DNA from: Leucobacter soli
GTDB taxonomy: Bacteria > Actinomycetota > Actinomycetes > Actinomycetales > Microbacteriaceae
Direction: 5' to 3'
Assembly: GCA_040392345.1 (NCBI GenBank)
Contig: JBEBWI010000001.1
Location: forward strand, 19,181 to 83,180
DNA: 64,000 nt
Of this stretch, positions 33,670 to 60,097 are shown in pieces (positions within the stretch are counted from its first letter, which is position 1; each line of letters begins with the position of its first letter). Under the pieces are notes generated by a model. It searched no databases. It had not been told where the DNA came from and saw only the letters and a program-made list of their open reading frames with translations. The position numbers were made by a program, and so were the translations under genes.

Positions 33670-34602
33670 TTGGCGAAGGCGAGGATCGATCTCAACCTGC
33701 TCGGGCCGCTCCGAGTGCTGCTCGAAGAAGCGAACGTCACCCGAGCCGGCGCGCGACTCGACATGCCGCAATCCTCCGCGAGCGCCATCCTCGCCCGGCT
33801 TCGCGCGGCACTCGACGACGAGCTGCTGGTGCAGGTCGGGCGCGATTTCGAGCTGACCCCGTTCGCACGCCGCCTGCTCCCTCGCCTGCAGCACGCCCTC
33901 CCCCTCGTCGAGCAGTCGCTCGGCAGGGAAGAGGTCTTCGACCCTGCCACCTCGACACGCAGCTTCACAGTCACCTTCTCCGACCACGCGATCATCGAGT
34001 GGAAGCCGGCGATCACCGCTGTGCTCGACCGCGCGCCGGGGTTGCGCGTGCAGTTCGAACAGCTGCCGACCTGGCAGGAGCACGCTCGCAAGAATCCGAT
34101 CCGGTCCGATTTCTTCGCGGTGCCGCCCGAGCTCGCACCCGAAGGCATGGTCAGGGGCGCGCTCCTGCAGGATCACTACGTGTGCGTCATCGATCGCTCG
34201 CACCCGGGGCTCGTCGAGGGAGCGATCTCCCTCGACGGGTTCATGAGCTTCCCGCATGTCCGCACCGACTTCGGCACCGCGCACATCTCGGCCGTCGAGC
34301 AACGGCTCAATGCCCTGCACCTGTTTCCCGAGTACCGCGCAGCAGCATCCACCGTGCTCGCTCTGCCTTCGATGGTGGTCGGCACCCGGCTCATCGCGAC
34401 GATGCCGTCGCGACTGGCCGAACTGGTGCGCGATCGGGGCAGCACCGTGGTCGCCCCCACGCCGTTCGGAGAGGTGCTCCTGTACGAGCAGTTGGGCTGG
34501 CATCAGTCGCGGAACCAGGATCCCGGACATCGTTGGTTCAGGGAGGCGTTGATCGAGGCCTGGGAGACGCAGCGCTCCCGCGTGGCGGAAGGGATCCGGT
34601 AA
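33670..34602 (+). CDS. LysR regulator (type A, pair 1)
   Basis: IDLNLLGPLRVLLEEANVTRAG; TTG start inferred. Confidence 0.9.
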   Translation: MAKARIDLNLLGPLRVLLEEANVTRAGARLDMPQSSASAILARLRAALDDELLVQVGRDFELTPFARRLLPRLQHALPLVEQSLGREEVFDPATSTRSFTVTFSDHAIIEWKPAITAVLDRAPGLRVQFEQLPTWQEHARKNPIRSDFFAVPPELAPEGMVRGALLQDHYVCVIDRSHPGLVEGAISLDGFMSFPHVRTDFGTAHISAVEQRLNALHLFPEYRAAASTVLALPSMVVGTRLIATMPSRLAELVRDRGSTVVAPTPFGEVLLYEQLGWHQSRNQDPGHRWFREALIEAWETQRSRVAEGIR

Positions 34603-35540
34603 TGGGCGATCTCAAGGGCGTCGACGCGAATCTCATCGTCGTGCTCGACGCAGTGCTGCGCGAGCGCAATCTGACGCATGCCGGCCACTCGCTCGGAGTG
34701 ACCCAATCTGCCGTCAGCAACTCGGTCAAGAAGCTGCGCGCGGCACTCGACGACCGTCTGCTCGTGCGCTCGGGCCGCCAGTTCGAGCTCACCCCGAAGG
34801 CGGCAGCACTGCAGCCGCAGGTCGCCGAGGCACTGCTGCAGATCGACCGCGCGCTCGGTCTGCACGCACCGTTCGACCCGCTGGAGATGCCCCGCCGGTT
34901 CTACATCGCGACATCGGAGTATGCGATGGCGACCCTCACCGGCCCGCTCATGCAGGTGCTCGACGTCGAAGCTCCCGATGTGTCGGTCGACTTCAGCCCA
35001 CTGCCCCCGATGCATCCCGGCATCGGCCCGGCGGACCTGCTGAAATACGACCTCATGATCGCGGGAACGGGCAGCGGCCTGTTCGGCAAACGGCAAGCCC
35101 TGTACTCCGACGAGCTCGTCTGCGTCGTGAGTCGCGACAACCCGTGGCTGCGCGACGGCGCGCTGACCATCGAGGATCTCTCGTCGATGCGGCACGTGGT
35201 GGCACCGCAAGGGCCGGCGGAGAACGCGCCGGACCCGATGCTCAGGCTCGCAGAGCTCGGCGTGGAGGCGCATGCGGCGATCTCGATCGGCAACTTCGTG
35301 CCGGTGCCCGCCATCATCTCGGGGACCCCACTCGTCGGCTTCGTGCCGCGGCGGCTGGCCGAGCAGTACGCGGCGCCGCTCGACCTGGTGATCGCCGACA
35401 CGCCCCTCACGACTCCGATCGTCGTGGAATCCGCCTATTGGCACCCGTCCAAGACGGGCGACCCCGCTGTGCAGTGGCTGCTCACGGTGCTGCGCAGAAC
35501 CGCGGAACTGATCGAGTTCGGAACCCAGGAGTGGCCGTAG
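34602..35540 (+). CDS. LysR regulator (type B, pair 1)
   Basis: VDANLIVVLDAVLRERNLTHAG; TAATG overlap. Confidence 0.92.
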   Translation: MGDLKGVDANLIVVLDAVLRERNLTHAGHSLGVTQSAVSNSVKKLRAALDDRLLVRSGRQFELTPKAAALQPQVAEALLQIDRALGLHAPFDPLEMPRRFYIATSEYAMATLTGPLMQVLDVEAPDVSVDFSPLPPMHPGIGPADLLKYDLMIAGTGSGLFGKRQALYSDELVCVVSRDNPWLRDGALTIEDLSSMRHVVAPQGPAENAPDPMLRLAELGVEAHAAISIGNFVPVPAIISGTPLVGFVPRRLAEQYAAPLDLVIADTPLTTPIVVESAYWHPSKTGDPAVQWLLTVLRRTAELIEFGTQEWP

Positions 35541-35542
35541 TA

Positions 35543-35599
35543 GAACGGTGAACGGGTTCGTCGGCTCCAACACGAAGCCGACGAACCCGTTCACCGTTC
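35543..35599. terminator. 24-bp perfect inverted repeat, probable bidirectional terminator
   Basis: GAACGGTGAACGGGTTCGTCGGCT, 9-nt loop, then its reverse complement; between convergent genes. Confidence 0.75.
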
Positions 35600-35631
35600 C
35601 AATCGCCGCCGCGAAGCGGCGCGCACCGGTA

Positions 35632-36285
35632 TCAGTACCGATGCTCCTCCTCGAAGCTCGCGTAGGGCGCCGGAGGCGCCGGCTCGTTCACATACACGCG
35701 ATCCTGCGCATACATCCAGTACGTCGTCGGCGGCTTGTCGGGCAGGAACTCATCGGGCATCGGAGGCGCCCCGTGCTCCATCGAGTTCTCGGTCCACGGC
35801 GTGCCGTACGGGGTCATGAACAGCCCATAGACGTGCAGATGCCAGATCTTCCACACCCCGTTCTCGCGAATGAAGTCCACACCGTACTTGCACCACGCCC
35901 AGAACGCCTCGTTCGAGTCGCTGACGAACGACATCGATTCGAGGCCCGGCGAGATCCAGGTCCCTCTCGCGGTCTGCAGATCATCGGCGACCTCGACGAC
36001 CTGGGTCGTCATGAGGTGCATGTGCATCTTGCCCTTCATATCCCCGTCGGTCCAGACATGGAACCCGGGGTACAGTCGGCGCAGGCTCTCCGGCCCCTCG
36101 TACACCCCCCACATCATCTCCGCGCTCACATCATCGCGCGACATCGCGAAGAGGTCGAGGCACTCCTCATGCATGTTCGCGGTATGCCAGTACGAATACC
36201 GGCCCATCAGATTCTCGATGTCACGGGTGGCTTCGAGCTTCGCGAGTCGAGCCTCCGTGGAGAGTTCAACCGTGGTGTTCGTCAT
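35632..36285 (-). CDS. NTF2/SnoaL-like protein, copy 1
   Basis: IENLMGRY, HLMTTQVVEV, ARGTW, KYGVDFIRENGVWKIWH. Confidence 0.85.
   Translation of the reverse strand: MTNTTVELSTEARLAKLEATRDIENLMGRYSYWHTANMHEECLDLFAMSRDDVSAEMMWGVYEGPESLRRLYPGFHVWTDGDMKGKMHMHLMTTQVVEVADDLQTARGTWISPGLESMSFVSDSNEAFWAWCKYGVDFIRENGVWKIWHLHVYGLFMTPYGTPWTENSMEHGAPPMPDEFLPDKPPTTYWMYAQDRVYVNEPAPPAPYASFEEEHRY
35653..36209. repeat. 557-bp direct repeat, copy 1 (copy 2 at 47374-47930)
   Basis: Aligned by eye: two mismatches, both synonymous. Confidence 0.92.
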
Positions 36286-37136
36286 GCGTTTCCTTTCTCT
36301 GAAATCTCTGCGGCGAGGTCTGCGCGCGCTCCCACGAGACGCATCTCCCGCCGTTCCCGCTGCTCCTGCGGATCGGGGCTGAGGATCGCCGACACGAGTC
36401 GGCGGGTGTACGGATCCTGCGGCGAGCGCATGACCTGGTCCGCAGGCCCCGTCTCGACCAGCTCGCCACGATGCAGCACCGCGAAGTCATCCGCGATGAA
36501 CTGCACGACCTCGAGGTTGTGCCCGATGAACAGGTACGAGATGTCGAGCGTGTCCTGCAGATCGCGCAGCAGGTTCAGCACCTGCGCCTGCACCGAGAGG
36601 TCGAGCGCGCTCACCGCCTCGTCGCAGATCACGAGTCGTGGGGAGCTCATGAGCGATCGGGCGATCGCGATGCGCTGCCGCTGGCCTCCGGAGAAGCCCG
36701 ACACGAACCTCTTGCCCGCCGAGGCCGGCAGGCCGACTCGATCCAGCATCTCCGCACTGCGCACCCGGGCGTCCTTGCGCCTCCAGCCCTGAGCCTCGAG
36801 CGGTTCCGTCAGGATCTCCTCGATCGTCACTGCGGGGTTGAGCGAGCTGTACGGGTCTTGGAACACCACCTGCAGGTCGGCGGCGACGGCGCGACGACCG
36901 CGCCGGTCGAGCTGGCCGATCTCCCGTCCGTCCAAGCGGATGCTGCCGCCCAGCACGGGGGCGAGGCCCACGATCGCGCGACCGATCGTGGATTTCCCCG
37001 ACCCGGACTCGCCGACGAGCCCCAGCGTCTTCCCCTGCTCGATCCTGAAGGAGACGTCCCGCACGATCTGCGTGGTCTTGCGTCCCCTCCCATAGCCGAC
37101 GTCGAGATGCTCGACTTCCAGTACCGGTGCGGTCAT
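36282..37136 (-). CDS. DppF-type ABC ATPase (module 2)
   Basis: GESGSGKST, FSGGQRQR. Confidence 0.92.
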   Translation of the reverse strand: MTAPVLEVEHLDVGYGRGRKTTQIVRDVSFRIEQGKTLGLVGESGSGKSTIGRAIVGLAPVLGGSIRLDGREIGQLDRRGRRAVAADLQVVFQDPYSSLNPAVTIEEILTEPLEAQGWRRKDARVRSAEMLDRVGLPASAGKRFVSGFSGGQRQRIAIARSLMSSPRLVICDEAVSALDLSVQAQVLNLLRDLQDTLDISYLFIGHNLEVVQFIADDFAVLHRGELVETGPADQVMRSPQDPYTRRLVSAILSPDPQEQRERREMRLVGARADLAAEISEKGNA

Positions 37137-39088
37137 CGCGCACCTCCCCTCACCAGATCCCGGCTCCAGATGTCGCGCTCCACCTGATCCACTCGCAGGC
37201 AACGGCTCGTTCCGCCGTCCGGCGACTGCACCAGCGGCACGGGCCCCTGCCCGCACACCTCGACCGCGAGTGGGCATCGGGATTGGAACCTGCAGCCGGT
37301 AGACCATTCGCTCGGCAGCGGAATCGTGCCCGGAATCGACGGCAGCCGAGTCGCACCGCCGGCGACTCCACTGGGATTCGAAGCCAGCAGCCCGGCGGTG
37401 TACGGGTGCGCCGGGCGATGGAACAACGCATCGGTCGCGGACTGCTCGACCACCTGCCCCGCATACATCACGACCGCTCGATCGCACAGGTCGGAGACCA
37501 CGCCCCAGTCGTGGGTCACGATGAGGATCGAGAGGCCCTCGCTCGCACGCAGCTCTCGAAGCAGGTCCAGCACCTCCGCCTGCACGGTGACGTCGAGAGC
37601 GGTCGTCGGCTCGTCTGCGATCAGGAGCTTCGGCGATCCGGCCAGCGCTCGAGCGATGGCGATCCGCTGCGCCATGCCACCCGATATCTCGTGCGGGTAC
37701 AGCCGGAGCACCCGCTCGGGGTCGGGGAATCGCACCCGCGCCAGCAGCTCGCGAGCGCGCGCTCGAGCCTCACGCCGCCCCGACCCGGTGTGCAGGCGGA
37801 CTGCGTCCGTGAGCGTCGTGCCGATGCGTTGCGTAGGATCGAGCGCCACGAGCGGTTCCTGCGACACGAAGGCGAACGAGGTGCCGCGCAACTCCCGCAG
37901 CTCCCCGACGGTCGCCGTGGTGAGCTCGACGCCCTCGAAGCTCACGGCGCCGCCGCTCACGCCGCCGCCGCGCAGCAGCCCGAGCACCGCTCGCGCGAGT
38001 GTGGATTTGCCGCAGCCCGACTCGCCGACCAGTCCGACGATCTCTCCGGCGGCGATCTCGAAGCTCACACCGTCGACCACGGTCTGACCCTGCTCGACGC
38101 TTCCGTACTCGACCGAGAGTTCCCGCACCGAGAGCAACGAGGAACTCTCGGGCGCTGCGCCCGCGGCGTCGCCGGGGCTCCTGCGGCGCCTGATGCGGCT
38201 CGGTCGGGACGGCGTTCTCGCCCAGCGGGCCACCGAGGCGTCACGGATCGTGTCGCCCAGCAGGCCCAGGCAGAGCACCGTCACCCCCAGCACCCCGCCG
38301 GCCGCGAGCAGCAGGGCCGGGTTCTGCCGCGTGATCTGCGCGCCCTCGGCGATCAGCGTGCCCCAGGAGGGGTCGGGCGCGGAGACGCCGAACCCGAGGT
38401 ATGCGAGCCCCGACACGAAGATCAGGCCCATCGACGCGATGAGCGAGGCTTGCACGAGCACCGAGCCGACCAGTCGCGGCAGGATGTGCCGGAAGACGAT
38501 GCGGGTGTCGGAGAAGCCGGCGACGCGCGCGGCATCGATGAACAGTTCGGACCGGATCGCGATCGCGTTCGCGCGAATGATGCGGATCAACGGCGGCACC
38601 AGCAGGAGCCCGAGTGCGAGATATCCCATGATGACCTGATTGCCGAAGACGGCGAGCACGAGCAGCACGATGACCATCGAGGGGAGCGCCAGGCCGATAT
38701 CGACGATGCGCATCAGGAACTGGTCGATGCGGCCCCCACGGTACCCGGCCACCATGCCGAGGGGCACGCCGACCACCAGCGCGGTGCACGCGACGAGCAG
38801 CGCGGCGCCCAAGTCCGGGCGTCCGCCGTACAGCAGTCGGGAGAGCACGTCGCGCCCCAGCTGATCGGTACCGAGCCAGTGCTCGGCGCTCGGGCCGGCG
38901 AGACTGTTCGCCAGGTCGTTCGCGAGCGGGTCGTAGGGCGCCCAGACGCCGGCTCCCAGCACGGCGATGACGATGACCGCGAGCACGATCGCGGCGATCA
39001 CCGGCACGGGCTTCATCAGTGCCGCGACGAATGCGCTGCGGGGCTTCGCCGGATGCGGGACGGCGAGCACGCTGGTGTGAGTGGTCAT
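37133..39088 (-). CDS. Fused DppC permease-DppD ATPase (module 2)
   Basis: LGTDQLGRD then GESGCGKST, ISGGMAQR and a C-terminal GCRF..RC..C..C tail. Confidence 0.92.
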   Translation of the reverse strand: MTTHTSVLAVPHPAKPRSAFVAALMKPVPVIAAIVLAVIVIAVLGAGVWAPYDPLANDLANSLAGPSAEHWLGTDQLGRDVLSRLLYGGRPDLGAALLVACTALVVGVPLGMVAGYRGGRIDQFLMRIVDIGLALPSMVIVLLVLAVFGNQVIMGYLALGLLLVPPLIRIIRANAIAIRSELFIDAARVAGFSDTRIVFRHILPRLVGSVLVQASLIASMGLIFVSGLAYLGFGVSAPDPSWGTLIAEGAQITRQNPALLLAAGGVLGVTVLCLGLLGDTIRDASVARWARTPSRPSRIRRRRSPGDAAGAAPESSSLLSVRELSVEYGSVEQGQTVVDGVSFEIAAGEIVGLVGESGCGKSTLARAVLGLLRGGGVSGGAVSFEGVELTTATVGELRELRGTSFAFVSQEPLVALDPTQRIGTTLTDAVRLHTGSGRREARARARELLARVRFPDPERVLRLYPHEISGGMAQRIAIARALAGSPKLLIADEPTTALDVTVQAEVLDLLRELRASEGLSILIVTHDWGVVSDLCDRAVVMYAGQVVEQSATDALFHRPAHPYTAGLLASNPSGVAGGATRLPSIPGTIPLPSEWSTGCRFQSRCPLAVEVCGQGPVPLVQSPDGGTSRCLRVDQVERDIWSRDLVRGGAR

Positions 39089-42097: not shown

Positions 42098-42832
42098 TCA
42101 GATGCGGCCCTCGCCGCCGTCGACGAGCAACGTCTGACCGGTCATGAAGCCGATGTCGTCCGAGACCGCGAACGAGACCACCGCCGCGATGTCATCCGGC
42201 AGGCCCGTTCGGGGGATCGCCTGGCGCGAGCGCACGGCGGCGAAATGCGCCTCGGGCACGTCCACCAGCGCGTGCTCGGTAGCGGTCAGCCCCGGAGCCA
42301 CCGCGTTGACGGTGATGCCCAGCGGGCCGAGCTCCGTGGCGAGCGCCCGCACCATGCCGGTCAGCGCACCCTTGCTCGCGACATAGTGAGTCATCTGCGG
42401 CGGCGGCGTGAACTGACTCGATGAGGTGATCATCACGATGCGCCCCCACCCCGCCGCGCGCAGGTCTGGCAGTGCCGCCTGCACGAGGTGGAACGCCCCG
42501 TCGACATTGATGCGGAACGTGCGCTGCCACTCGAGCGCGTCGAGCTGCTCGAACGGCGCGATCACCTGGTAGGCGGCGCAGTGCACCACGACCAGCGCCT
42601 GGCCGAGTTCGTCACGCACCCGGTCGACGGCGCCCGCCACCGCGGCAGGGTCGCCGAGGTCGCAGGGCACGTCGGCGATTCCGGCCCGCGGCCGCTCGGG
42701 CTGCAGAATGTCGAGGCTCGCCACCCGCATCCCGTCGGCGACCAGGCGTTCGGCGATGGCCGCGCCGATGCCGCGGGCGCCGCCCGTCACGATGGCGACG
42801 CGGGGCGCGCGCTCTCGATCTACCTCGTTCAT
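42098..42832 (-). CDS. SDR oxidoreductase
   Basis: TGGARGIG, YVASK. Confidence 0.92.
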   Translation of the reverse strand: MNEVDRERAPRVAIVTGGARGIGAAIAERLVADGMRVASLDILQPERPRAGIADVPCDLGDPAAVAGAVDRVRDELGQALVVVHCAAYQVIAPFEQLDALEWQRTFRINVDGAFHLVQAALPDLRAAGWGRIVMITSSSQFTPPPQMTHYVASKGALTGMVRALATELGPLGITVNAVAPGLTATEHALVDVPEAHFAAVRSRQAIPRTGLPDDIAAVVSFAVSDDIGFMTGQTLLVDGGEGRI

Positions 42833-42899
42833 TTGCCCTCTCCTTCGAGTACTGGGAATCTGCGGTGCACGGGTCGGCCGTTCGGGCCGGCCGCCGCGC

Positions 42900-43919
42900 T
42901 CACTCGGGGTTTCGGCCGACGAAGAAGTCGGCGAAGGAATCCATGCTCGGTGCGAAGCCCGAGGCGATGAGCCCCTGGCGCAGCTGGTTCATCTGCGGGT
43001 CGTGGATGCGCTGGGTCGGCAGGCGAAGCGGGCCGCCGTTGTAGCCGCGCAGCCAGCCCTGAAACTTCCACAGCTGCCGGTTGATGAAGTTGCCGCCGTT
43101 GAGCTGCTGCGACACCGCGCTCTTCGCTTTGCGCGCCGGGTGCATCTTCCAGTACAGCTCGGTCACCTCGTCGAACTTCTCTTCGCGCAAGAGCCGCATC
43201 GCCTCGGGAATCGTGGGGCCCCAGAACTCGTGATCGCTGGTCGCCGAGAACTGAATCGGCATCAGCTGCCCGAGCGGCAGCAGCTCACCCTCGATGGGGC
43301 ACGAGATGACGACCTCGTCGCCGAACAGCCGGTACGCCTCGATGATGCCCATGATGCTCGGGAACCCGCCCTCGGCCTTGATGACTGCGATGTTCGGCAC
43401 GTCGTCGAGCAGGCGGCGAATCAGCCGGGCCGGGATATCGGACGGGTGAATGCGGTTGCTGAAGCCCCACAGGAACATCGGGAACAGGATCACGGCGAGG
43501 TTCGTGGCGTCGCACACCGCCTTCGTGTAATCGTAGATCTCCTGCTCCGACTGCGGGTAGAAGTTCGGCGGGTACGAGAGCAGCACGAGCTCGGCACCGG
43601 CCGCCTCCGCGCCCTTCACCGCCTCGATGTTCTGCTCGAGATCGCTCCAGCTGGCGTGGTGCACGATGACGAGGTCGTCCCCGGCCTCGTCCTTCATGAT
43701 CTCGAGGAACCGCAAGTACTCGGGCAGGGTGATGCTCACCTCCGAGACACCCAGGCTGCCCACGAAACCGTGCTGCTTTGCGAGGCGCACGTCGTGGCGG
43801 ATGCCGAGTTCGCTGAGCGATCTCAGGTCGCTCGTGAACGAGGGAATGGTGCAGTTCACCGCTCCGACGAGCCGTTCGCGCGCCCAGTCGCGGGCTTCGG
43901 ATCTCGTGTAGCCGGCCAT
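42900..43919 (-). CDS. DHDPS/NAL-family hydratase-aldolase (PhdG-like)
   Basis: EARDWARERL N-terminus, IAVIKAEGG Schiff-base Lys, GYNGGPLR; resembles recalled PAH-pathway PhdG-type proteins. Confidence 0.75.
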   Translation of the reverse strand: MAGYTRSEARDWARERLVGAVNCTIPSFTSDLRSLSELGIRHDVRLAKQHGFVGSLGVSEVSITLPEYLRFLEIMKDEAGDDLVIVHHASWSDLEQNIEAVKGAEAAGAELVLLSYPPNFYPQSEQEIYDYTKAVCDATNLAVILFPMFLWGFSNRIHPSDIPARLIRRLLDDVPNIAVIKAEGGFPSIMGIIEAYRLFGDEVVISCPIEGELLPLGQLMPIQFSATSDHEFWGPTIPEAMRLLREEKFDEVTELYWKMHPARKAKSAVSQQLNGGNFINRQLWKFQGWLRGYNGGPLRLPTQRIHDPQMNQLRQGLIASGFAPSMDSFADFFVGRNPE

Positions 43920-44014
43920 GGTTGTCTCTTTTCTCTTCGGTTCTCTTACGTTCCTGCGTGCGACCGATGCGATTCGCCCGGTGGATCACCGAGCTGCGGC
44001 CCGCAGCGCAGCCG

Positions 44015-49175: not shown

Positions 49176-49226
49176 GCTGTTCTCTTTCCTGTTCGTCTCG
49201 AGTGTGTTCGTCGGTCGCGACCCGGC

Positions 49227-49781: not shown

Positions 49782-49875
49782 GGTGCCGCGCTCCTTCGCT
49801 CCGTTGATCTCAATACTGGAGAGGAGCGGACACAGTCGCGATCAGGTAATTCGCATACCTGACATTCGGGTCCGC

Positions 49876-50322
49876 TCAGATCGCTTCCGCGGAATCCGGC
49901 TTCCAGCCGACGGGCCCGCCCCGATCCAGCAACTCGATGAGATGCCCCTCCGGATCCGACACGAATGCCATCCGCACGCCGGCTTCGGGAGCGGGCCGCG
50001 GCGCCATCCGTTCCTCGGCTCCATGAGCGAGCAGACGTTCGTAGACGGCGTCGACATCCTCGACCCGCAGGCAGATGTGCCCGTACCCCTGGGTCAGCAG
50101 CGCTTCAGGCGGCGAGGCCGCGCGGAGCCCCGCACGGGAACCTGCGCGCGAGAGCAGCTCGATCGCCCATTCCTGCCGCCTGTCTACGAGGAAGGTCCCG
50201 CGAATTCCGAGATCAGGAAGCTCGAACGGAGTGGTCTCCTCCAGTCCGAAGACCTCGGCGTACCAAGCGATCTGCGCATCCAAGTCGGCCACCGAGAGCC
50301 CCACATGATCGAGAGCGTGCAT
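49876..50322 (-). CDS. Single-domain VOC/glyoxalase protein
   Basis: LDHVGLSV, IELL, GHICLRV, DPEGHLIEL. Confidence 0.88.
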   Translation of the reverse strand: MHALDHVGLSVADLDAQIAWYAEVFGLEETTPFELPDLGIRGTFLVDRRQEWAIELLSRAGSRAGLRAASPPEALLTQGYGHICLRVEDVDAVYERLLAHGAEERMAPRPAPEAGVRMAFVSDPEGHLIELLDRGGPVGWKPDSAEAI

Positions 50323-51185
50323 CACATCCTCTCCTTTCGTTGTCGTGATTCGAATGCGCCCGCCTGCCGGGCCGAACGCCGCCGGGCCTGTTCCTCCGGG
50401 TCGGCGACCGGTGTGGCCGCGAGGAGTGCCGACGTATACGCGTCTTCGGGGGCCGTGGCGATCTTCTCGGTGGAGCCGGACTCGACGATGCGCCCGTGTC
50501 TCAGCACGATCGTGCGGTGCGAAACCGCACGGACGACATCGAGGTTGTGGGCGATGAAGAGATAGCTCACCCCCGTCTCCTCCTGCAATCCGATGAAGAG
50601 CTCGAGAATCTGGGCCTGGATCGAAAGATCCAGGCTCGCGGTCGGCTCGTCGCACACGATCAGCCTGGGCCTCGGCAGCATGGCCCGTGCAATGGCGATG
50701 CGTTGCCGCTGCCCGCCCGAGAAGGATCCTGGGTATCGCTCCTTCATCCCGGGCTCGATACCGACTCTGAGCAGCACATCGTCGATACGGGCCGCACGAT
50801 CCCTGCCCGAGAACTCCGGCCGCGAGTACAGTGCCTCCTCGAGGGTCTGCCGCACCGTGCGCGTCGGGTTCAACGAGGCGTAGGGATCCTGGAACACGTA
50901 CTGGACCTCGCGTGCGACCGCCCGCCGAGACCGTCTCCGCATAGCCGCGAGTTCGAGCCCGCCGAGATGTATCGATCCCTCGGAAGCTGGGGTGAGCCCC
51001 ACGACCGACCGCGCGATCGTGGTCTTACCCGACCCCGATTCGCCCACGAGCCCGACGGTCTCACCCACACCGACATCGAAGCTCACGCCGTCAAGCACTC
51101 GCCGCCGTCGCGATCCACGACCGTAGTCGACGCTCAGCCCCTGAACGCTCAGACAGGTTTCGATGTTCTCACCCTTCTGGTTCAT
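50322..51185 (-). CDS. DppF-type ABC ATPase (module 3)
   Basis: GESGSGKTT, FSGGQRQR. Confidence 0.92.
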   Translation of the reverse strand: MNQKGENIETCLSVQGLSVDYGRGSRRRRVLDGVSFDVGVGETVGLVGESGSGKTTIARSVVGLTPASEGSIHLGGLELAAMRRRSRRAVAREVQYVFQDPYASLNPTRTVRQTLEEALYSRPEFSGRDRAARIDDVLLRVGIEPGMKERYPGSFSGGQRQRIAIARAMLPRPRLIVCDEPTASLDLSIQAQILELFIGLQEETGVSYLFIAHNLDVVRAVSHRTIVLRHGRIVESGSTEKIATAPEDAYTSALLAATPVADPEEQARRRSARQAGAFESRQRKERM

Positions 51186-52972
51186 CTGCGCTCCTCCTCT
51201 CGCTGCTCCCGCGTCGGCATCGCCGCCGGATTCGAAGCGAGCAGCGAAGCCGTGTAGTCGTCAGCGGGCGCCGAGAAGAGCACCTCGATCGGGGCCGCCT
51301 CGCACACGACTCCGTTCCGCATCACCACGGCGCTCGAGCACATATCCGCCACGACGCCCCAATCATGAGTGATGAGCAGGATCGCCATGCCCGTTCTCAG
51401 CTGGATGTCGCGCAGCAGGTCGAGTATCTCGGCCTGCACCGTGACGTCGAGCGCAGTCGTCGGCTCATCGGCGATGAGCAGTTGGGGCTCGGCGCACAGC
51501 GCCCGCGCGATCGAGACGCGCTGGGCCATGCCGCCCGACAGCTCGAACGCGTACTTCTGGAACACCTCCTCAGGCTCGCGCATCTGCACCTTCTCGAGCA
51601 GATCCAGCGCCGACTCGCGGGCCTCGACCTTCGAGAGCTCGGGGCGGTGCTGACGCAGCGCCTCCACCAGTTGAGCGCCCACCCGCCACGCAGGGTCGAG
51701 AGACATGTGCGGTTCCTGCGAGATGTAGGCGATGCCGAGTTCGGTACGCCGCGCCGCCGGGAACTCGCCGATACCCGTGATGTCGGTCCCGTTGAAGAGC
51801 ACCCGGCCGCCGGTGACACGACCGTTCCGGAGCACTCCGAGAATCGCCCGCGCCGTCGCCGACTTGCCGCTTCCCGACTCTCCGAGCAACCCCACGGTGC
51901 TGCCGGGCGCCACATCGAAATCGATGCCGTGCACGACCCCGAGATCGGCGTCCCCATAGGCGACCTGCAGCCCGCGCACGCTGAGCAGGGTGTTCACCGG
52001 TTGGTCCACCTGTTCCAGTGCCATCGCGGGTTCCCGGCGTCGCAGGCGTCGCGGTGCGCGTGCACGAGCCCGCGCACCGCTCCATCGTTCGGTGGTGAGA
52101 TCCCGGAGCCCCTCTCCGAGCAGGCCGGTCGCAATCACGGTGCAGGCGATGGCCAGACCGGCCGAGACCATCAGCATGGGCTGCGTTCCGAAGATCTGAG
52201 CGCCATCGCCGATCATCAACCCCCATGAGGGGTAGGGCGGTTCGGTGCCGAAGCCGAGATACGCCGCACCGGTGACCAGGAGGAGTGCCATACCCGTGAG
52301 CATCGAGGCCTGCACGAGGACGGTACCGAGCTGACGGGTGAGAATGTGTCGTCCCAGGATGAGAGACGTAGGCAGCCCGGCGACCGCGGCGGCATCGATG
52401 AACGTCTCCTGCCGATAGCTCAACGTGCTCGCGCGGATCACGCGCATGAGGAACCCCGAGACGAGCACCCCGATGCACACCATCGCGATCGGCATGTTGT
52501 CCTGGAAGAGCGTGAGCACGACGAGCAGCATGACCATGCCGGGCAGTGACATGAGCAGATCGCTGATGGCCATGATGAAGGTGTCGACGTAACCGCCGGC
52601 GAACCCGGCGAGCATCCCGAATGCGACCCCGCTGATCAGGGCGGCGGCAACGACTTGACCGGTGTAGAGCAGCGTCGGGCCGGTGCCGACGATGAGCCGA
52701 CTGAGCGTGTCGCGCCCCAGCTGGTCAGTGCCCAGCCAATGCGCCCACGAGGGGCCCTGCAGCGACTCGGCGAGGTTGCCGGAGACCGGATCGTAGGGGG
52801 CGATCACCGTGCCGAGCACCGCCACCAGCACGAGCAGTGCGAGGTAGACAAGCGCAGCGAATGCGAGAGGCCTGCGCCGTGCGAGCTGGAGAAGCGGGGA
52901 CTGCGCCCGACGTGCGGCCGCTTCGGGCGTGGGAACGATGACGCCCGTGGCGAGTGGAGTGGGTTCCGTCAT
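51182..52972 (-). CDS. Fused DppC permease-DppD ATPase (module 3)
   Basis: LGTDQLGRD then GESGSGKS, LSGGMAQR. Confidence 0.92.
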   Translation of the reverse strand: MTEPTPLATGVIVPTPEAAARRAQSPLLQLARRRPLAFAALVYLALLVLVAVLGTVIAPYDPVSGNLAESLQGPSWAHWLGTDQLGRDTLSRLIVGTGPTLLYTGQVVAAALISGVAFGMLAGFAGGYVDTFIMAISDLLMSLPGMVMLLVVLTLFQDNMPIAMVCIGVLVSGFLMRVIRASTLSYRQETFIDAAAVAGLPTSLILGRHILTRQLGTVLVQASMLTGMALLLVTGAAYLGFGTEPPYPSWGLMIGDGAQIFGTQPMLMVSAGLAIACTVIATGLLGEGLRDLTTERWSGARARARAPRRLRRREPAMALEQVDQPVNTLLSVRGLQVAYGDADLGVVHGIDFDVAPGSTVGLLGESGSGKSATARAILGVLRNGRVTGGRVLFNGTDITGIGEFPAARRTELGIAYISQEPHMSLDPAWRVGAQLVEALRQHRPELSKVEARESALDLLEKVQMREPEEVFQKYAFELSGGMAQRVSIARALCAEPQLLIADEPTTALDVTVQAEILDLLRDIQLRTGMAILLITHDWGVVADMCSSAVVMRNGVVCEAAPIEVLFSAPADDYTASLLASNPAAMPTREQREEERR

Positions 52973-53913
52973 GAGCGGGTCCTCACCTTCGGATCGACGA
53001 ATGCGTATATCGCGTCGAGCACCAGGTTGACGACGATGACGATCAAACAGAAATAGCAGGCGACGGCCACGATCACCGGTACATCTCGAGTCGCCGTCGC
53101 TCTGACGGCGATCGATCCGAGACCCGGCAGCCCGAATACGCTCTCCGCCAGCACCGCACCGCTGAGCGTGCTGACGAAGAGCCCGCCGGTGACCGCGATC
53201 GCCGGAATCGCGGCGTTGCGCAGAACATGACCGAACAGAATCCGTCTGGGGGACAGACCTTGCACCCGGAGGACGTCGACGAACTCCTTGCTCAGGACCT
53301 CGTCGACGCTGTCGCGCGTCTGTTTCGACACCATCGCGATTCCACCGACGCACAATGCGGCTATGGGCAGCACCAGACTCTTCGCCCAGAGCACCGGGTC
53401 GTCGGGGAACGGCACGAATCCGGTGGCCGGGAACCAGCCGAGCTCAACCCCGAACACATTGCTGAGCACCAGAGCGATCCAGAACGGCGGCAACCCCATG
53501 CCGATGAGTGCCACGACATCGAGCGCCTTGGACAGCCAGCGGCCCTCGGTCGCCGCGTACACGCCGAGCGCCGTGCCGATGGCGCTCGCGAGCACGACTG
53601 CACCGAACGCAAGCGGGATGCTCACCGCTAGCCCGCGATTGAGCTGAGTCGCCACGGGCTGGGGAGAGACGATCGAGGTGCCCAGGTCGCCCTGAACAGC
53701 GCTGACGGCCCACTCGAAGTACCGCTGCCAAAGCGGAAGGTTCAGCCCCAGCTGTTCGCGCAGCGCCGTGAGTTGCTGCTCGGACGCGTTGGGGCCAAGC
53801 AGCGCCGACGCCGCATCGCCCGGGATCAACGACACGAGCGTGAAGGTCAACGCAGACACCGCGAAGAGGAGGACGACACCGGCAGCCGCGCGGCGAAGGA
53901 TGATCTTCAGCAT
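52969..53913 (-). CDS. DppB-type permease (module 3)
   Basis: PGDAA, GDLGTS, HVLRNA. Confidence 0.92.
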   Translation of the reverse strand: MLKIILRRAAAGVVLLFAVSALTFTLVSLIPGDAASALLGPNASEQQLTALREQLGLNLPLWQRYFEWAVSAVQGDLGTSIVSPQPVATQLNRGLAVSIPLAFGAVVLASAIGTALGVYAATEGRWLSKALDVVALIGMGLPPFWIALVLSNVFGVELGWFPATGFVPFPDDPVLWAKSLVLPIAALCVGGIAMVSKQTRDSVDEVLSKEFVDVLRVQGLSPRRILFGHVLRNAAIPAIAVTGGLFVSTLSGAVLAESVFGLPGLGSIAVRATATRDVPVIVAVACYFCLIVIVVNLVLDAIYAFVDPKVRTRS

Positions 53914-53944
53914 CGAGAGCCCTTCGGTAGAGATGGAACGGTGC

Positions 53945-53976
53945 TTCCGCCCCCGGAGGAGGCGCCGGGGGCGGAA
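53945..53976 (-). promoter_or_regulatory. 12-bp stem-loop between SBP and permease genes
   Basis: TTCCGCCCCCGG ... CCGGGGGCGGAA. Confidence 0.6.
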
Positions 53977-53986
53977 ACTTCACCAA

Positions 53987-55561
53987 CTAGGAGGTCTTGG
54001 ATATCCCCTGTCCGGGAATCGGGGCGACCATGTTGGGTTGGGGGATGACGAAGTTCTTCGTCGGCAGAACGATCGCGTCGCTCACGACATCCGTCGACCG
54101 CTCGGTGATCAGCGGCACGCTGAACGACACCTCGTTCAGGTAGCTGTTGAGCTCTTCCAACAGCCCGACGAAGGTCTCTTCGTCGGGAGCGACCGCGGCC
54201 TGCTTGATGAGTGCGTCCGCTCTCGGGTCGACGGCGCCCAGCGGGTTCAGCAGCGTGCCGGGGGAGACGATCGACTGCGTCACCATCGTGTAGAGGTCGT
54301 TGGAGAACAGACCGTAGACGACCGCGTCGTACCCGCCGCCAGCCATCTCCCCCATGAACTCCTCGAAGGTGCCCGACGACACGGTCAACTCCGCGGCGAC
54401 CCCCACCTGAGCGAGCTGATCCACCAGCAGCTGCCCGATCAGGCCACCTTGATCGGAGGTGGTGTTCGTGAGCAGTTTCAGAGCGAATCCATCGGCATAT
54501 CCCGCGCTGGCGAGCAGCGCCTTGGACTCATCGAGGTCGAACGGATACGAACCGACGAGGCTCTCACTGAAGCCCGGCTGCCCCTGTGGTGTCGTCTGTT
54601 CCTGCACGACCGCCGCACCCGAGTAGAGGCTTGAGACGATACCCTCGCGATCGATCGCGAGGTTGAGCGCCTGGCGCACGTTCGCATCCGAGAGGGGGCC
54701 CGAACTCGTATCGAGGAACTGCATCGACTTCCAAGAGGTGTACCCGCTGAGAGTCTCGAAGCCTTCCAGCGCGTTGGCACCGACCTGGGTAACGGGAATC
54801 TGCTGCGCGATATCGATCTGGCCGCTCTTCAGCGCCGCCAGGCGGGCGTTCGCATCGGGCAGAATCGAAATGCGGACGGCGTCGAAGGCGACTGCATCGG
54901 GCTCGAAGTACTCCTCGTTCGCGACGAACGCGACGGCGGATCCGGAAACGGTGTTCTCAGCATCGAGCACGTACTGGCCTGCACCGTCGGACGCGCTCTC
55001 GAGGCTGTCCGGATCAGCGAGGCCCTGCGGCCCGATGAGCAGGCCCATTCCGTAGAACTGGGACAGCGACTCGGCGGCGTTCGGGAATGCCTCCTCATAG
55101 GTGAGTCGCACGGTCAGATCGTCCACCGCTTCGACGTCTGCGAGTGTGCCGACCGATCGACCGTTCGGGTTCGGCGTGTCGAGGAAGTACCGGATCGAGG
55201 CTGCCGCAGCCGATGCGTCGAGCTCGCCGCCCTGTTGGAAGGTGACGCCTTCGCGCAGAGTGAATTCGAAGACGGTGTTGCCTTCGCCCACGTATCCCCA
55301 TTCCTCGGCGAGGCCCGGAAGGTAGCTTCCGTCATTCGCTTTGAAGATCACGGGATCGTACGCGTAGGTGACCACGCTGCTCACCGGCGTGAGCACGGGG
55401 TTGAGGCTCATCACCGGCATCTGGCTGCCGACCGTCAGCAGCGCGGAACGGCCTTCGACCGTCTGCTCCGAGGCGCTGCCGCCGCTCGAGCATCCGGCGA
55501 GCGCGAGTACGAGCGCCGAGACCGCAGCGGTGGCCGTGAGACCGAGTTTTGGATACTTCAT
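53987..55561 (-). CDS. Family 5 ABC substrate-binding lipoprotein (module 3)
   Basis: LAGC lipobox; YDPV, LREGVTF. Confidence 0.92.
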   Translation of the reverse strand: MKYPKLGLTATAAVSALVLALAGCSSGGSASEQTVEGRSALLTVGSQMPVMSLNPVLTPVSSVVTYAYDPVIFKANDGSYLPGLAEEWGYVGEGNTVFEFTLREGVTFQQGGELDASAAAASIRYFLDTPNPNGRSVGTLADVEAVDDLTVRLTYEEAFPNAAESLSQFYGMGLLIGPQGLADPDSLESASDGAGQYVLDAENTVSGSAVAFVANEEYFEPDAVAFDAVRISILPDANARLAALKSGQIDIAQQIPVTQVGANALEGFETLSGYTSWKSMQFLDTSSGPLSDANVRQALNLAIDREGIVSSLYSGAAVVQEQTTPQGQPGFSESLVGSYPFDLDESKALLASAGYADGFALKLLTNTTSDQGGLIGQLLVDQLAQVGVAAELTVSSGTFEEFMGEMAGGGYDAVVYGLFSNDLYTMVTQSIVSPGTLLNPLGAVDPRADALIKQAAVAPDEETFVGLLEELNSYLNEVSFSVPLITERSTDVVSDAIVLPTKNFVIPQPNMVAPIPGQGISKTS

Positions 55562-55595
55562 CGTATTCCTTCTCTCTTCTTGTGTTGTCAGTGAA

Positions 55596-56051
55596 TCATG
55601 CGGGCGGCGCGCTCGGCGGCGGCCCCGGGGTGCGCAGTCGGATCACGTTGCCATCGGCATCCGCGATGAATGCGGTGAGTCCCCCGGGGCCCGGATGAGC
55701 AGGCATCAGCACTTCGACGCCCCCGGTCGCGAATCGCTCGAGCGCGCCCTCGAGGTCGGCCACATCGAGCTGCACGTTCGTGCAGCCGGTGAGCAGCGCC
55801 GCATCGAGCGGGTGCTCCACACGCGCGCGCGGTGTCGCACCCGCTCGTTCGAGCAGCTCGATCGACCAACCGTTCTCCGATGCGAGCACACGCCCCTGGA
55901 GATCGTAGGGCGGCAGCGCGAACTCCGCGACCTGCTGCAATCCGAAGTGGGTGGTGTACCAGTCCACCGCGGATTCCAGGTTCTCCACGGCCAGCGTGTA
56001 GCCGCTCAGCTGCGCGCCGACGGCCCCGCCGGGCTTCGTCTGAGTGTTCAT
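55596..56051 (-). CDS. VOC/glyoxalase-fold protein, degenerate metal site
   Basis: Aligns with 49876-50322 (WY, F.LP, W.IELL) but lacks both His and the terminal Glu. Confidence 0.82.
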   Translation of the reverse strand: MNTQTKPGGAVGAQLSGYTLAVENLESAVDWYTTHFGLQQVAEFALPPYDLQGRVLASENGWSIELLERAGATPRARVEHPLDAALLTGCTNVQLDVADLEGALERFATGGVEVLMPAHPGPGGLTAFIADADGNVIRLRTPGPPPSAPPA

Positions 56052-56093
56052 GTGTTCCCCTTGCTTCTGTGGTTCGAATCGGAACGCTGTCGC

Positions 56094-57239
56094 TCACACC
56101 GGAAGGCGGGAGATGTTCCCGTCCTGCCCGAGGAGCACTTTGCCGTAGACCTCGCGGTTGACCGCCCAGTTCACGGCGCCATGGCGGGCGGTGGTGTTCA
56201 CGTCGCGCCAGGAGCGTTCGAACGGGCTCGACTGCGCGAAGGCGCCCGCGCCGACCGTCGTCATCACGATGTCGATCGCTTCGGTCACGTTCTTCATGAT
56301 CCAGCCGGCCTCGCCACGGATGCGCGCCCGCTCCAGAACCGTCAATTCCACGCCCTGCTCCTCGGCGGCGTCGAGCTGGTCGGTGGCCCGGAAGAGGTGC
56401 AGCCTCGCGGTGCCGATGCGCAACGATGCCTCCGCAAGATCGACCTGCACGCTCGTCGAGATCGCGCCCGGCTGGTACGAGGTGCCGGCGAACGGCTTCT
56501 CCGCCATGTAGTCGATCGCGCGCTGCAGCATTCCCTCGGCGATGCCGACCGGAATCGCGCACGGGCCGATCGAGAGCGCCGGGTTCGCGGGTGGCGGCCC
56601 CGGCAGTATCTCCACACGGTAGTCCGGCACGAAGAGCTCCTTCGCGACAACGGTCTCGCTCTCGGTTCCGCGCATGCCGGTCGCATCCCAAGTGCGATCG
56701 ATCGACACTTCTGCGATCGGAACCATGACCTTGGCCATCCCGGGCTCTCCTTCGGGGCCGGGAGGCAGTGCGAGGAACAGTGAGACCCAGTCGGCATGTG
56801 TGGAGCCCGACACGGAGAACCAGCGCCCGCTGATCCGGTATCCACCGTCCACCTGCTCGACGTCTCGGGTCGGCGTACCGCTGCCGCACACGCGCAGATC
56901 GGGCCCGTTCGCGAACAGCTCGTCCTTCAGCCGGTCGGAGGCGTGCGTCGTACCCGCTACCCCGCCGGCGAAAACGCCCACGACCCACGCGGTGGAGGCG
57001 CAGCCCTCGGCGAGCGTGCTGAGCACCTCCGTGCGGGTGCGCCCGTTGACCTCCCAGCCGCCGCGTTCCTTCGGGGAGTTCATCCGGAAGAATCCTGCGG
57101 CCTCGAGCTCTGCGATGGTCTCCTCGGGCAGCACCCCCGAGGCCTCGACGTTCGCGGCCCGCTCGCGCAGTGCCGGTACGAGCGCCACCGCGCTCGCCAC
57201 GAGCTCGTCATGGGTGGGAATGACATCGGTTTCAGTCAT
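56094..57239 (-). CDS. Acyl-CoA dehydrogenase-fold flavin-dependent hydroxylase (HsaA/HpaB-C2/DszC type)
   Basis: ASTAWV, GRWFSVSGS.HADW, W..TGMRGTES, RSWRD...H. Confidence 0.88.
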   Translation of the reverse strand: MTETDVIPTHDELVASAVALVPALRERAANVEASGVLPEETIAELEAAGFFRMNSPKERGGWEVNGRTRTEVLSTLAEGCASTAWVVGVFAGGVAGTTHASDRLKDELFANGPDLRVCGSGTPTRDVEQVDGGYRISGRWFSVSGSTHADWVSLFLALPPGPEGEPGMAKVMVPIAEVSIDRTWDATGMRGTESETVVAKELFVPDYRVEILPGPPPANPALSIGPCAIPVGIAEGMLQRAIDYMAEKPFAGTSYQPGAISTSVQVDLAEASLRIGTARLHLFRATDQLDAAEEQGVELTVLERARIRGEAGWIMKNVTEAIDIVMTTVGAGAFAQSSPFERSWRDVNTTARHGAVNWAVNREVYGKVLLGQDGNISRLPV

Positions 57240-57275
57240 GATGCTCCTTCTTTTCTGTAGCAGACTCTGAGACGG

Positions 57276-58061
57276 TCAACGGGGTTCGAGACCGTCGGGA
57301 TAGGCGGTGGCACCCACGAGAGTGATCGGCCCGCCGAACGGCCGAGTCACCGACCGCAGGAAATGCTCGGGATGCAGCACCTTCCCGGTGCACTGCATGC
57401 GTTCGAGATCGAGCACCGAGAGCATCCCCGCGGCGCTGTCGTACTCGCGCCAGGCGACCAGATAGACATGCTCAGTGATGCGGTAGTACGCCGCCGGGTG
57501 GCAGTCGGCACGTCCCGGAGTGCCGACGGTGCTCACGTTGTGGGCGCAGACCTTTTCCGAGCTGAGATAGAGATGCTCGTAGAGATTGGCCGGGCTGTAA
57601 CGGTACAGGTGGTGATGTCCGATCAGATCACGGGTCGGGCCGGGAGCCGGGCCCACCTGGACTCGGCCGTCGAGCCTCGCCACGGAGAACTCGTGACGCA
57701 CCTCGGGGCCCCGCGACCAGGTCTCCTCCGGGTGAAACCGCTCTTGGAACACCATGAGCGCCCAGCCGGTGCGCTTGGCGACGATCACCGTGACTGCCTC
57801 GAGCCCGCGTATGAAATCCTGGAAGTCGATGTCGATGAAGAAGACACCGTCTGCGGCCTCCACCACGTCGCAGGGATCCTCGCCCGCACCTTGCCAAGAC
57901 AGATCCTCTGCGACCCAGGCCGCGGTCTCGCCGCGGAACTCGATCACCAGACGGCCACCGTCGATCAGTTCGAGCACGAGGGTCTCGCCGCTAAGCGCGT
58001 CGGTGGATGGCAGACGATTGGCGGAAAGCGGCTCCATCGGAGGCCCGGGGGTCAACGGCAT
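57276..58061 (-). CDS. MoaF-family protein
   Basis: PTRDLIG, YRYSP...YEHLY, YLVAWRE; RBS GAGG. Confidence 0.75.
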   Translation of the reverse strand: MPLTPGPPMEPLSANRLPSTDALSGETLVLELIDGGRLVIEFRGETAAWVAEDLSWQGAGEDPCDVVEAADGVFFIDIDFQDFIRGLEAVTVIVAKRTGWALMVFQERFHPEETWSRGPEVRHEFSVARLDGRVQVGPAPGPTRDLIGHHHLYRYSPANLYEHLYLSSEKVCAHNVSTVGTPGRADCHPAAYYRITEHVYLVAWREYDSAAGMLSVLDLERMQCTGKVLHPEHFLRSVTRPFGGPITLVGATAYPDGLEPR

Positions 58062-58259
58062 TGTTGGTTCCTCATTACTAGTGGCTGTGAGCGGTGAGGC
58101 GGTCGGAGGATTCGTTACGTCCAATCCTGAAATACGCGGGCGGAATCCTCTCATTCCGAGTCCGTATCAGAGGTATGCGCAGGGGGGATGAAGCCGATCG
58201 TCTCGCCAGCGGGCAGAATGAATACGGGCCTTCAGACCGGCACGTTTCAAAGGGGAATC

Positions 58260-59165
58260 ATGTCTCATCTCGCCAACAGAGATCTCGATCTCCTCGCTTG
58301 CCTGCGGGTGCTGCTCGAAGAGGCGAATGTGACCCGTGCCGCGGAGCGCCTGCGGATGGGACAGCCGGCGATGAGCGTTGCGCTCTCGCGGCTTCGCCAG
58401 CAGTTCTCGGATGAGCTGCTGGTACGAGTTGGGAGGGATCTGGAGCTCACGCCGTTCGCGAGTTCGCTCCGCGCACCCGTCGAGCGAGCGGTCACGCTCA
58501 TCGAGACCGCGCTCGGCTCCTCGGAGCCCTTCGAGCCCGCGCGCGCCCGCAAGACCTTCTCGCTGGTAGCCCCGGACCACGTCGCAGCCCTGCTCTGGCC
58601 GGCGGTTTCTCGGATCCTGACGGAGGCTCCCGGAATCTCACTCGAGATCAAGCCCGTCGCATCCGAGCCGCTCTCTTCGGATCGGATGCTGCTGCGCGAA
58701 GACTACTTCGCGGTGCCGCCGGTCGGGGACACCATGAGTGAAAGCATGGTGATCGCGCGCGACGTATACGTGGGCCTCCTCGATCGCGACAATCCGTTGA
58801 GACCCGCACCTGGCGGACCGATCGACTGGGACTCCTTCAAGACGCTCCCGCACGCGGTTGCGAAAGCCGAGACCGAGTTCCGCTCCCCCGTCGATCTGAT
58901 GCTCGGCGAGCTGGGGTTCGCCCGGGAGCCCGTTGTCAGAGTCTCGAGCTACCTGCAGCTTCCGACGGTCGTCTCCGGCACAAGCCTCCTCGCGGTGCTC
59001 CCCTCCTCCGTCGCGGAGCAACTCGCTCCCGCAACCGGCACGATCGTCGTCGAGCTGCCGTTCGGCCCGGTCGAGAAGATATCGTCGCTCTGGTGGCATC
59101 CGGCCCGTCGCAACGACCCCAGTCACGTCTGGTTCACTTCACGCCTGCTGCGAGAGCTTTCATGA
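58260..59165 (+). CDS. LysR regulator (type A, pair 2)
   Basis: DLDLLACLRVLLEEANVTRAA; DELLVRVGRDLELTPFA. Confidence 0.92.
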   Translation: MSHLANRDLDLLACLRVLLEEANVTRAAERLRMGQPAMSVALSRLRQQFSDELLVRVGRDLELTPFASSLRAPVERAVTLIETALGSSEPFEPARARKTFSLVAPDHVAALLWPAVSRILTEAPGISLEIKPVASEPLSSDRMLLREDYFAVPPVGDTMSESMVIARDVYVGLLDRDNPLRPAPGGPIDWDSFKTLPHAVAKAETEFRSPVDLMLGELGFAREPVVRVSSYLQLPTVVSGTSLLAVLPSSVAEQLAPATGTIVVELPFGPVEKISSLWWHPARRNDPSHVWFTSRLLRELS

Positions 59166-60097
59166 CCGCCGCCTCCCGCCCCAATGCGAACCTCATCGTC
59201 ATCCTCGACGCGATCCTCACGCATCGCAATCTGACCCGCGCGGGAGAATCGATCGGCATGGCGCAGCCTTCGATGAGCGGAGCCCTTTCTCGTCTCCGAG
59301 AGCTGCTGGGAGATCCGCTGCTGGTGCGCAGCGGCCGCATCTCCGAGCTCACGCCCACGGCGGAATCACTGATCCCGTTGGTTCGCCAGGCACTCATCGA
59401 GGTCGAGCAGATCTACGCCACAAGATCCGATTTCGACCCGGCGAGCTCCAGGCGGTTCTTCCTCGTGTCGGCTTCAGAAGAGGTCATCGTCGAGCTCGGC
59501 GCCTCGGTCGCGGCGATTCTGCATCGGGAAGCGCCCCTCGCGACAGTCGATTTCGAACAGGTGTCGGATCCCGATGCCGAGAGCCTGGAATCCCTTCTGC
59601 AACGACGCGACGCGGTTATTCTGCCCGGCGCGCAAAGCCCCTCGTCGCGGAAGCTCTCGCTGTACTCGGAGCGCCTCGTCATCGTGGTCGACCAGTCGCA
59701 TCCGCTTCTCGACGGCGATCGTCTGGAGAACGAGGCGCTGCGGGGCATGCAGCGGATCGTGGGGGCGGAGAACGCCTACTCGGCGAGAGCGGCCGAGATG
59801 CTGGAGATCGCGGGGGTGAGCCCCACCCCGGTCGTGTGCGGTGCGCCCACCGCCGTGCTTCCTCAGATGGTGATCGGCACCCCCTACTTCGCCGTGGTTC
59901 CGGAGCGCATGGCTTTGCGGGCCATCGACTCGGGCATCACCATCGCAGTCACCGGAGGCCTCCGCTCGTCGACGATCGTCGAAGCCGCGCACTGGCATGT
60001 CAGCCGCAGTGACGATGCCGCGCTGCAATGGTTTCTCAAAGTGCTTCGGCGTGCAGCAGAAGACGTCGAATTCCCCGAAGGTCTCGACGCCCTCTAG
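59162..60097 (+). CDS. LysR regulator (type B, pair 2)
   Basis: NANLIVILDAILTHRNLTRAG; ATGA overlap. Confidence 0.92.
   Translation: MTAASRPNANLIVILDAILTHRNLTRAGESIGMAQPSMSGALSRLRELLGDPLLVRSGRISELTPTAESLIPLVRQALIEVEQIYATRSDFDPASSRRFFLVSASEEVIVELGASVAAILHREAPLATVDFEQVSDPDAESLESLLQRRDAVILPGAQSPSSRKLSLYSERLVIVVDQSHPLLDGDRLENEALRGMQRIVGAENAYSARAAEMLEIAGVSPTPVVCGAPTAVLPQMVIGTPYFAVVPERMALRAIDSGITIAVTGGLRSSTIVEAAHWHVSRSDDAALQWFLKVLRRAAEDVEFPEGLDAL

Follow-up and report, generated by a model that had tools for sequence, protein, structure and literature searches.

Two tandem pairs of diverged LysR-type regulators in Leucobacter soli: candidate co-expressed regulators of shared divergent control regions

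LysR-type transcriptional regulators (LTTRs) such as DntR and NahR are products of single genes and form homotetramers; they combine an HTH_1 with a LysR_substrate domain, and their genes are divergent from catabolic operons. Two paralogous LTTRs belong to one catabolic supercluster in Acinetobacter baylyi, where BenM and CatM, according to passages in two articles, act on shared promoters with different effectors (PMC5603801, PMC11495319). BenM/CatM is cited as the classic parallel to PnpR/PnpM of Pseudomonas sp. WBC-3, which are 44% identical and both needed at one promoter to activate pnpCDEFG; a single 27-bp region is protected by PnpR as well as by PnpM, and PnpM forms a tetramer without its partner (PMC5603801). 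Here, we describe two pairs of LTTR genes, A1-B1 and A2-B2, in a stretch of 64,000 nucleotides (the window; G000:C1:19181-83180) from an assembly of Leucobacter soli (Microbacteriaceae; 2.8 Mb, 80% complete, 67% G+C). The four proteins have the domain composition of DntR and NahR and the same divergent gene arrangement but, unlike these single genes, each pair consists of two diverged paralogues back to back. We consider it about evenly probable (roughly 0.5) that A and B are co-expressed LTTRs which assemble separately and both act at a single control region, in the manner of BenM/CatM and PnpR/PnpM.

A1 (33670-34602, + strand, 310 aa) starts with TTG and ends with TAA, and its stop codon overlaps the start of B1 (34602-35540, + strand, 312 aa) by 1 nt (TAATG). 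In the second pair, B2 (59162-60097, + strand, 311 aa) overlaps the stop codon of A2 (58260-59165, + strand, 301 aa) by 4 nt (ATGA). The start codons of all four genes could be fixed because the N-termini of orthologues agree. A first-pass annotation of this DNA had reported both overlaps and quoted sequence motifs shared by the A members and by the B members; DNA and translations bear out the overlaps, and all of the motifs were found in the translations. A fifth LysR gene, B0 (20138-21088, - strand), encodes a single B-clade LTTR with 51% identity to B1 and is the 3'-most gene of an operon that also contains FAA_hydrolase, ABM, cyclase and major facilitator superfamily (MFS) genes; the corresponding A-clade gene, A0, is located just beyond the window (G000:C1:88677-89600, corresponding to L011:5497-6420). 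HTH_1 and LysR_substrate were matched above the Pfam cut-offs in A1, B1, A2, B2 and B0, whose lengths are 301-316 aa, and A1, B1, A2 and B2 are full-length LTTRs. The closest named relatives of the window genes are from Leucobacter and Microbacterium. Of the 25 LysR_substrate matches in the genome, only those of the two A-then-B pairs are adjacent to each other. As a rough baseline, no adjacent LysR pair was present among the approximately 150 matches listed for 40 other Actinomycetes genomes (G462 included; 61 further matches are outside this list). The two A-then-B pairs are real and beyond chance.

The closest solved relatives of A and B are DntR, PA0477, PcpR and MexT. Solved structures of the DntR/NahR type (1uth, 2uye, 5ae5) aligned from end to end, with E-values of 3e-34 for B1 and 4e-25 for A2; since DntR is among the best solved relatives, A and B are NahR/DntR-like LTTRs of the aromatic type. 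Two other families were considered and rejected: the scores reached at most 86-144 bits with the BsrA equivalog (NCBIfam NF050187, cut-off 480) and 94-113 bits with the LeuO equivalog (NF007063, cut-off 262), so that A and B are related to BsrA and LeuO, yet fall far under the equivalog cut-offs.

In BLASTP comparisons A1 and A2 were 40% identical (190 bits) and B1 and B2 36% (166 bits), whereas A and B proteins shared 29-35% (108-138 bits); A thus resembles A and B resembles B across the pairs, as the first-pass annotation had stated. In a maximum-likelihood tree of 63 proteins (LG+C20+F+G4), the A clade (29 rows) and the B clade (22 rows) were each recovered with a support of 100/100, and by this tree A and B are two old sister clades. 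A1 is sister to the A protein of the metagenome contig L009 (100/99), and the two are nested in a clade with the dispersed A0 group (99/93); B1 is likewise sister to the B protein of L009 (100/99), nested together with the dispersed B0 group (97/96). A2 groups with the A proteins of L093 and L094 (100/100), and B2 with the B proteins of the same two loci and a protein from Okibacterium (100/99; P0127, 49% identical to B2). By this tree A and B have parallel histories, and neither pair stems from a recent tandem duplication. Fresh tandem duplication, which the first-pass annotation had already discounted, was rejected on the A-B identity of 29-35% and on the separate clades. The two tandem lineages are placed apart in both clades of the best tree. 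Approximately unbiased (AU) tests did not reject one clade of all tandem A genes (p 0.14) or one clade of all tandem B genes plus P0127 (p 0.30); without P0127 a tandem B clade gave p 0.005, which reflects the placement of P0127 and not two origins. A single origin of the tandem form is hence compatible with the AU tests, and the best tree separates the two lineages.

Each pair has an orthologous A-then-B locus elsewhere, which supports the earlier proposal that A and B were passed on together as one unit. The best homologues of B2 (P0125, 59% identical, and P0126, 56%) are encoded in two loci, L093 (and L095) and L094, by genes with a 4-nt overlap; A2 is 65% identical to the A protein of L093 and 63% to that of L094. 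In L093 and L095, A overlaps B by 4 nt and the pair is divergent from the same operon, MoaF through importer, with a gene order from MoaF to the ATPase that matches the window in L093. L094, from a metagenome-assembled genome (MAG) of Microbacterium, has the same 4-nt overlap; the genes divergent from the pair are here MFS and Oxidored_FMN genes. The best homologue of A1 (51% identical) was found in L009 and L010, with a B1 orthologue (55%; L009:1162-2127) downstream in the same orientation after a gap of 117-139 nt, depending on the start chosen; A, B and a convergent SnoaL_4 gene follow each other in these loci as they do in the window. The convergent neighbour 3' of B is SnoaL_4 in the window and in L009 and an epimerase in L093 and L094. 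Both A and B are intact in every lineage found. The tandem pair thus stays together even where the target operon beside it is a different one.

These observations also bear on a second explanation that we regard as rather unlikely, in which A and B would form a mixed oligomer, for example the A2B2 heterotetramer that the first-pass annotation had proposed alongside a two-ligand AND gate. The overlap kept in three pair-2 lineages and the move of the pair as a unit between different target operons speak for such a complex, as do the congruent A and B trees, but overlaps of 4 nt are generally frequent in high-GC operons, also between genes whose products do not interact.

The tandem form was searched for in several genome sets. 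An A-clade alignment search yielded 80 loci in species-representative genomes, with an A-type gene always in the centre, and a same-strand A-B pair was present in none of the 80. A full-length B-like gene was located within 4 kb in 22 of these loci (plus one partial gene), in convergent orientation in 12 and in divergent orientation in 10; four of the 10 divergent neighbours belong to a different clade. Among metagenome loci one of 80 was tandem, namely L095. A search of 24 genomes from the genus and of 200 from the family gave no further adjacent pair, and the other genomes of a draw of 400 from the family contained no orthologue of the pair-2 type. Exact-sequence look-ups of B1 and B2 gave contigs of 1.2-1.4 kb only, without useful context, and a look-up of P0127 gave no record. 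The same-strand A-B form is rare. The survey of A-B adjacency that the first-pass annotation had proposed gave a divided answer: adjacency is kept within the two tandem lineages (L009/L010; L093/L095 and L094), but strict adjacency is rare elsewhere.

In the 400-genome draw, 13 genomes have A and 12 have B. All 12 B genomes also have A, and the sole A-only genome is an 88%-complete MAG; the related genomes in this count are not independent, and at least six genera are involved. This co-occurrence of both genes in 12 of 13 A-carrying genomes is a further point for a mixed oligomer. A and B are on one contig in nine genomes, where they lie 2-13 kb apart and always on opposite strands. In examples from Demequina and Microbacterium, A is divergent from glyoxalase and MFS genes and located upstream of flavin monooxygenase, cupin, SDR (short-chain dehydrogenase/reductase) and hydrolase genes; the B gene adjoins FAA_hydrolase, ABM and cyclase genes in the Microbacterium locus, and a B-clade LTTR is encoded approximately 5 kb from A in the Demequina locus. 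Two paralogous LTTRs within one catabolic gene island were thus found in this draw, with L003-L005 as example islands. Since A and B are mostly kilobases apart on opposite strands, their usual state is that of two separately transcribed regulators in one aromatic-catabolic island, and because they are separate units where they co-occur, two separate regulators of one pathway are favoured as the ancestral state. The prevalence of separate units in most genomes favours separately assembled, co-expressed regulators in the tandem form as well and speaks against a mixed oligomer, since obligate partners are not usually encoded in this way. The dispersed ancestral state is nevertheless compatible with mixed oligomers in the tandem lineages. 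Another recurrent LTTR duo was seen in Trebonia, Actinospica and many soil metagenome contigs (L088, L089, L090, L092, L131-L152), where an A-like LTTR gene is divergent from a second LTTR gene at a distance of 60-230 nt in most cases and of approximately 1 kb in L090; the second LTTR is outside the true B clade.

Both pairs are divergent from an importer-bearing operon, as the first-pass annotation had described and as Pfam scans of the neighbours confirmed, and the spacers between pair and operon are putative operator regions. For pair 2 the spacer between the MoaF gene and A2 (58062-58259) contains a palindrome at 58132-58167 with 15-nt arms and the inner arms CGGAAT-N6-ATTCCG, and the spacers of L093 and L094 carry related palindromes at the aligned place. 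The symmetric site suggests a symmetric pair of DNA-binding domains. The 10-base core pattern had two matches in the window versus 0.76 expected by chance. For pair 1 the spacer between the gene of the substrate-binding protein (SBP) and A1 (33367-33669) contains an imperfect 21-nt inverted repeat at 33584-33632, which includes CGGAATAG. The repeats in both control regions are candidate operators. The SBP-A1 spacer also contains an AT-rich dyad, ACAA-N11-TTGT, at 33510-33545, which could be an LTTR box. A count of perfect 5-mer dyads upstream of 87 A genes revealed no shared operator. Scans of both pairs for sigma-70 promoters and terminators were uninformative except for the hairpin after B1 (35543-35599); this perfect inverted repeat of 24 nt separates B1 from the convergent SnoaL_4 gene and is likely a bidirectional terminator that ends the A1-B1 unit.

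Upstream of A0-type genes (L011:5330-5510; L004; L013-L077) a strongly conserved block was seen, CGGATACC, directly followed on its 3' side by ATGCATC, which includes the A0 start codon; a second conserved block, CCGAGnGTAgG, is located approximately 40 nt upstream. An obvious ribosome-binding site was not seen in the CGGATACC region upstream of A0, which may be a short-leader promoter or an operator.

The domains were compared between orthologues as well as between A and B. Orthologues of A, and likewise those of B, share 72-86% identity in the DNA-binding domain and 41-60% in the effector domain; the stronger constraint on the DNA-binding domains indicates that neither A nor B is a copy in decay. 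Between A and B the effector domains share just 26-33% identity, which makes different ligands likely. In the clade consensus the recognition helices read QSSMSxALARLR for A and QPAVSGALxRLR for B, whereas those of pair 2 read QPAMSVALSRLR for A and QP[ST]MSGALSRLR for B; relative to the consensus the two helices have become more alike in the pair-2 lineage, so that A and B may recognise one and the same half-site. The linker helices of A and B are 23-33% identical and thus no closer than the rest of the proteins, which counts against a mixed oligomer, as does, as weak evidence, the failure to find an A-B fusion in a search for longer proteins. The only product of that search was P0181, a metagenome protein of 658 aa in which an A-like LTTR is fused to FAA_hydrolase, and which may be a true fusion or a frameshift artefact.

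The same comparisons are relevant for an explanation that we consider improbable, according to which one member is the working activator and the other an antagonist, a back-up or a regulator of distal genes (SnoaL_4 or the epimerase), and the overlap is mere compaction. Paralogue pairs of the BpeT/BpeS type are reportedly known to have unequal roles; furthermore, of all A-clade rows A1 sits on the longest terminal branch (0.71), its HTH_1 score is the weakest (38.6 bits), and a convergent neighbour 3' of B is conserved, be it SnoaL_4 or an epimerase. Unequal roles of this kind are hard to reconcile with two genes that are intact in every lineage found, with DNA-binding domains that are more conserved than the effector domains in both proteins, and with the retention of the pair when the target operon changes.

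Several results weigh against two separately assembled regulators at one control region. An overlap kept across approximately 40% protein divergence is typical of products needed in a fixed ratio, often the subunits of one complex. The control-region searches revealed no clear second, distinct operator. The converged helices fit two tetramers that share or compete for one site and fit mixed oligomers as well, and together with the palindromic candidate operator they are a point for the latter. In the mixed-oligomer version the paralogues would split the compact and the extended LTTR conformation between them, giving one particle with two kinds of effector pocket. A preprint on AtzR describes that LTTR homotetramers hold compact and extended subunits and 'resemble heteromultimers' (bioRxiv 10.1101/2022.04.12.488086), so that paralogues could conceivably, in structural terms, divide the labour between them. 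LTTR assembly in E. coli was found to be mostly specific, a precedent for separate assembly, with some non-cognate interactions of unknown meaning that would be in line with a mixed oligomer (Knapp and Hu 2010, PMC3004787); that assay dealt with E. coli LTTRs from unlinked loci and not with a conserved gene pair. On the other side, the literature searched yielded no description of a heteromeric LTTR or of a translationally coupled LTTR pair, and a 2024 review of the LTTR family does not mention hetero-oligomers (PMC11495319). The strict form of this explanation, with the tandem A and B as obligate heterotetramer partners, each fixed in one LTTR conformation, and two ligand pockets per DNA-bound particle, appears slightly more doubtful still.

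Taken as two separately assembled regulators, the pairs would work as follows. Each pair would be a regulator operon of two genes, A then B, with overlapping stop and start codons and presumably a common transcript. The tandem A and B would go back to the two regulators of an aromatic-catabolic island that is widespread in actinobacteria; in two lineages both genes would have been brought together in a single operon, divergent from an operon for uptake and an oxygenase, and the joined pair would then move with, or between, such operons as a unit. From one mRNA, A and B would be made in roughly equal amounts and would assemble separately as homo-oligomers. Both would act on the shared divergent control region, in pair 2 probably via the palindromes with the CGGAAT half-site, and as each would sense a different small molecule, the promoter would integrate two chemical inputs.

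The operons next to the pairs were analysed by Pfam scans. Divergent from pair 1 is a Dpp-type ATP-binding cassette importer (29131-33366, - strand) consisting of SBP_bac_5, a permease and a fused permease-ATPase, and convergent to B1 is the SnoaL_4 gene (35632-36207, - strand; NTF2 fold), which ends a second importer operon. The operon divergent from pair 2 covers 10.7 kb (47353-58061, - strand) and encodes, in this order, MoaF, an oxygenase similar to acyl-CoA dehydrogenases (ACAD-like), a glyoxalase, SBP_bac_5, a permease, a fused permease-ATPase and an ATPase, followed by a second glyoxalase, a flavin reductase, an unknown gene and SnoaL_4. Pair 2 and its operon form a module of 12.8 kb that is flanked by two copies of a hairpin-like 31-nt direct repeat, a left copy at 47277-47307 and a right copy at 60100-60130, which begins 3 nt past the B2 stop codon; 29 of the 31 bases match. 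The third-position G+C is 0.80-0.85 inside the module versus 0.87-0.91, and together with the flanking repeat this lower value fits the insertion of regulators and operon as one cassette. The pair-2 module may thus be an inserted cassette that duplicated a terminator; an integrase was not seen for it.

Some further similarities connect the neighbourhoods of the two pairs. The SnoaL_4 protein encoded at 35632-36207 is 99% identical to the copy encoded at 47353-48006, and a segment of 626 nt is 96.6% identical between 35631-36255 and 47352-47976, whereas the other importer parts of the pair-1 and pair-2 modules share 28-49% identity; the NTF2-fold gene therefore looks like a recent copy or the product of gene conversion between the two neighbourhoods. 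Three Dpp-type importers are encoded within 25 kb, and their fused permease-ATPases (DppC-DppD-like; 29131-30918, 37133-39088 and 51182-52831) are paralogues with 41-49% identity. Between two of the importer modules, genes for an SDR, a protein similar to dihydrodipicolinate synthase (DHDPS-like), an ornithine cyclodeaminase/mu-crystallin and a GntR/FCD regulator are located at 42098-47274, adjoining an aldehyde dehydrogenase gene.

A conserved, apparently translationally coupled operon of two diverged LTTR genes is a cloneable system in which mixed oligomers can be set against a two-input promoter switch, and either outcome would be useful for understanding the wiring of catabolic islands and for two-input biosensors. 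If the heterotetramer is true, the pairs would be the first natural heteromeric LysR-type regulator, with the built-in asymmetry of the homomer split between duplicated genes, and the importance of the system would rise if a heteromer were demonstrated. The literature searched does not claim mixed oligomers for BenM/CatM. If A and B act side by side, they would add one more BenM/CatM-like case in compact form. Like A and B, BenM and CatM are two paralogous LTTRs of one set of catabolic genes, but they are encoded in separate transcription units without a stop/start overlap, are proteobacterial and belong to a different LTTR subgroup. PnpR and PnpM differ from the pairs in their genes, which are not adjacent: pnpR is separated from the catabolic operons by 16 kb or more, and pnpM shares its transcript with pnpA1 rather than with pnpR.

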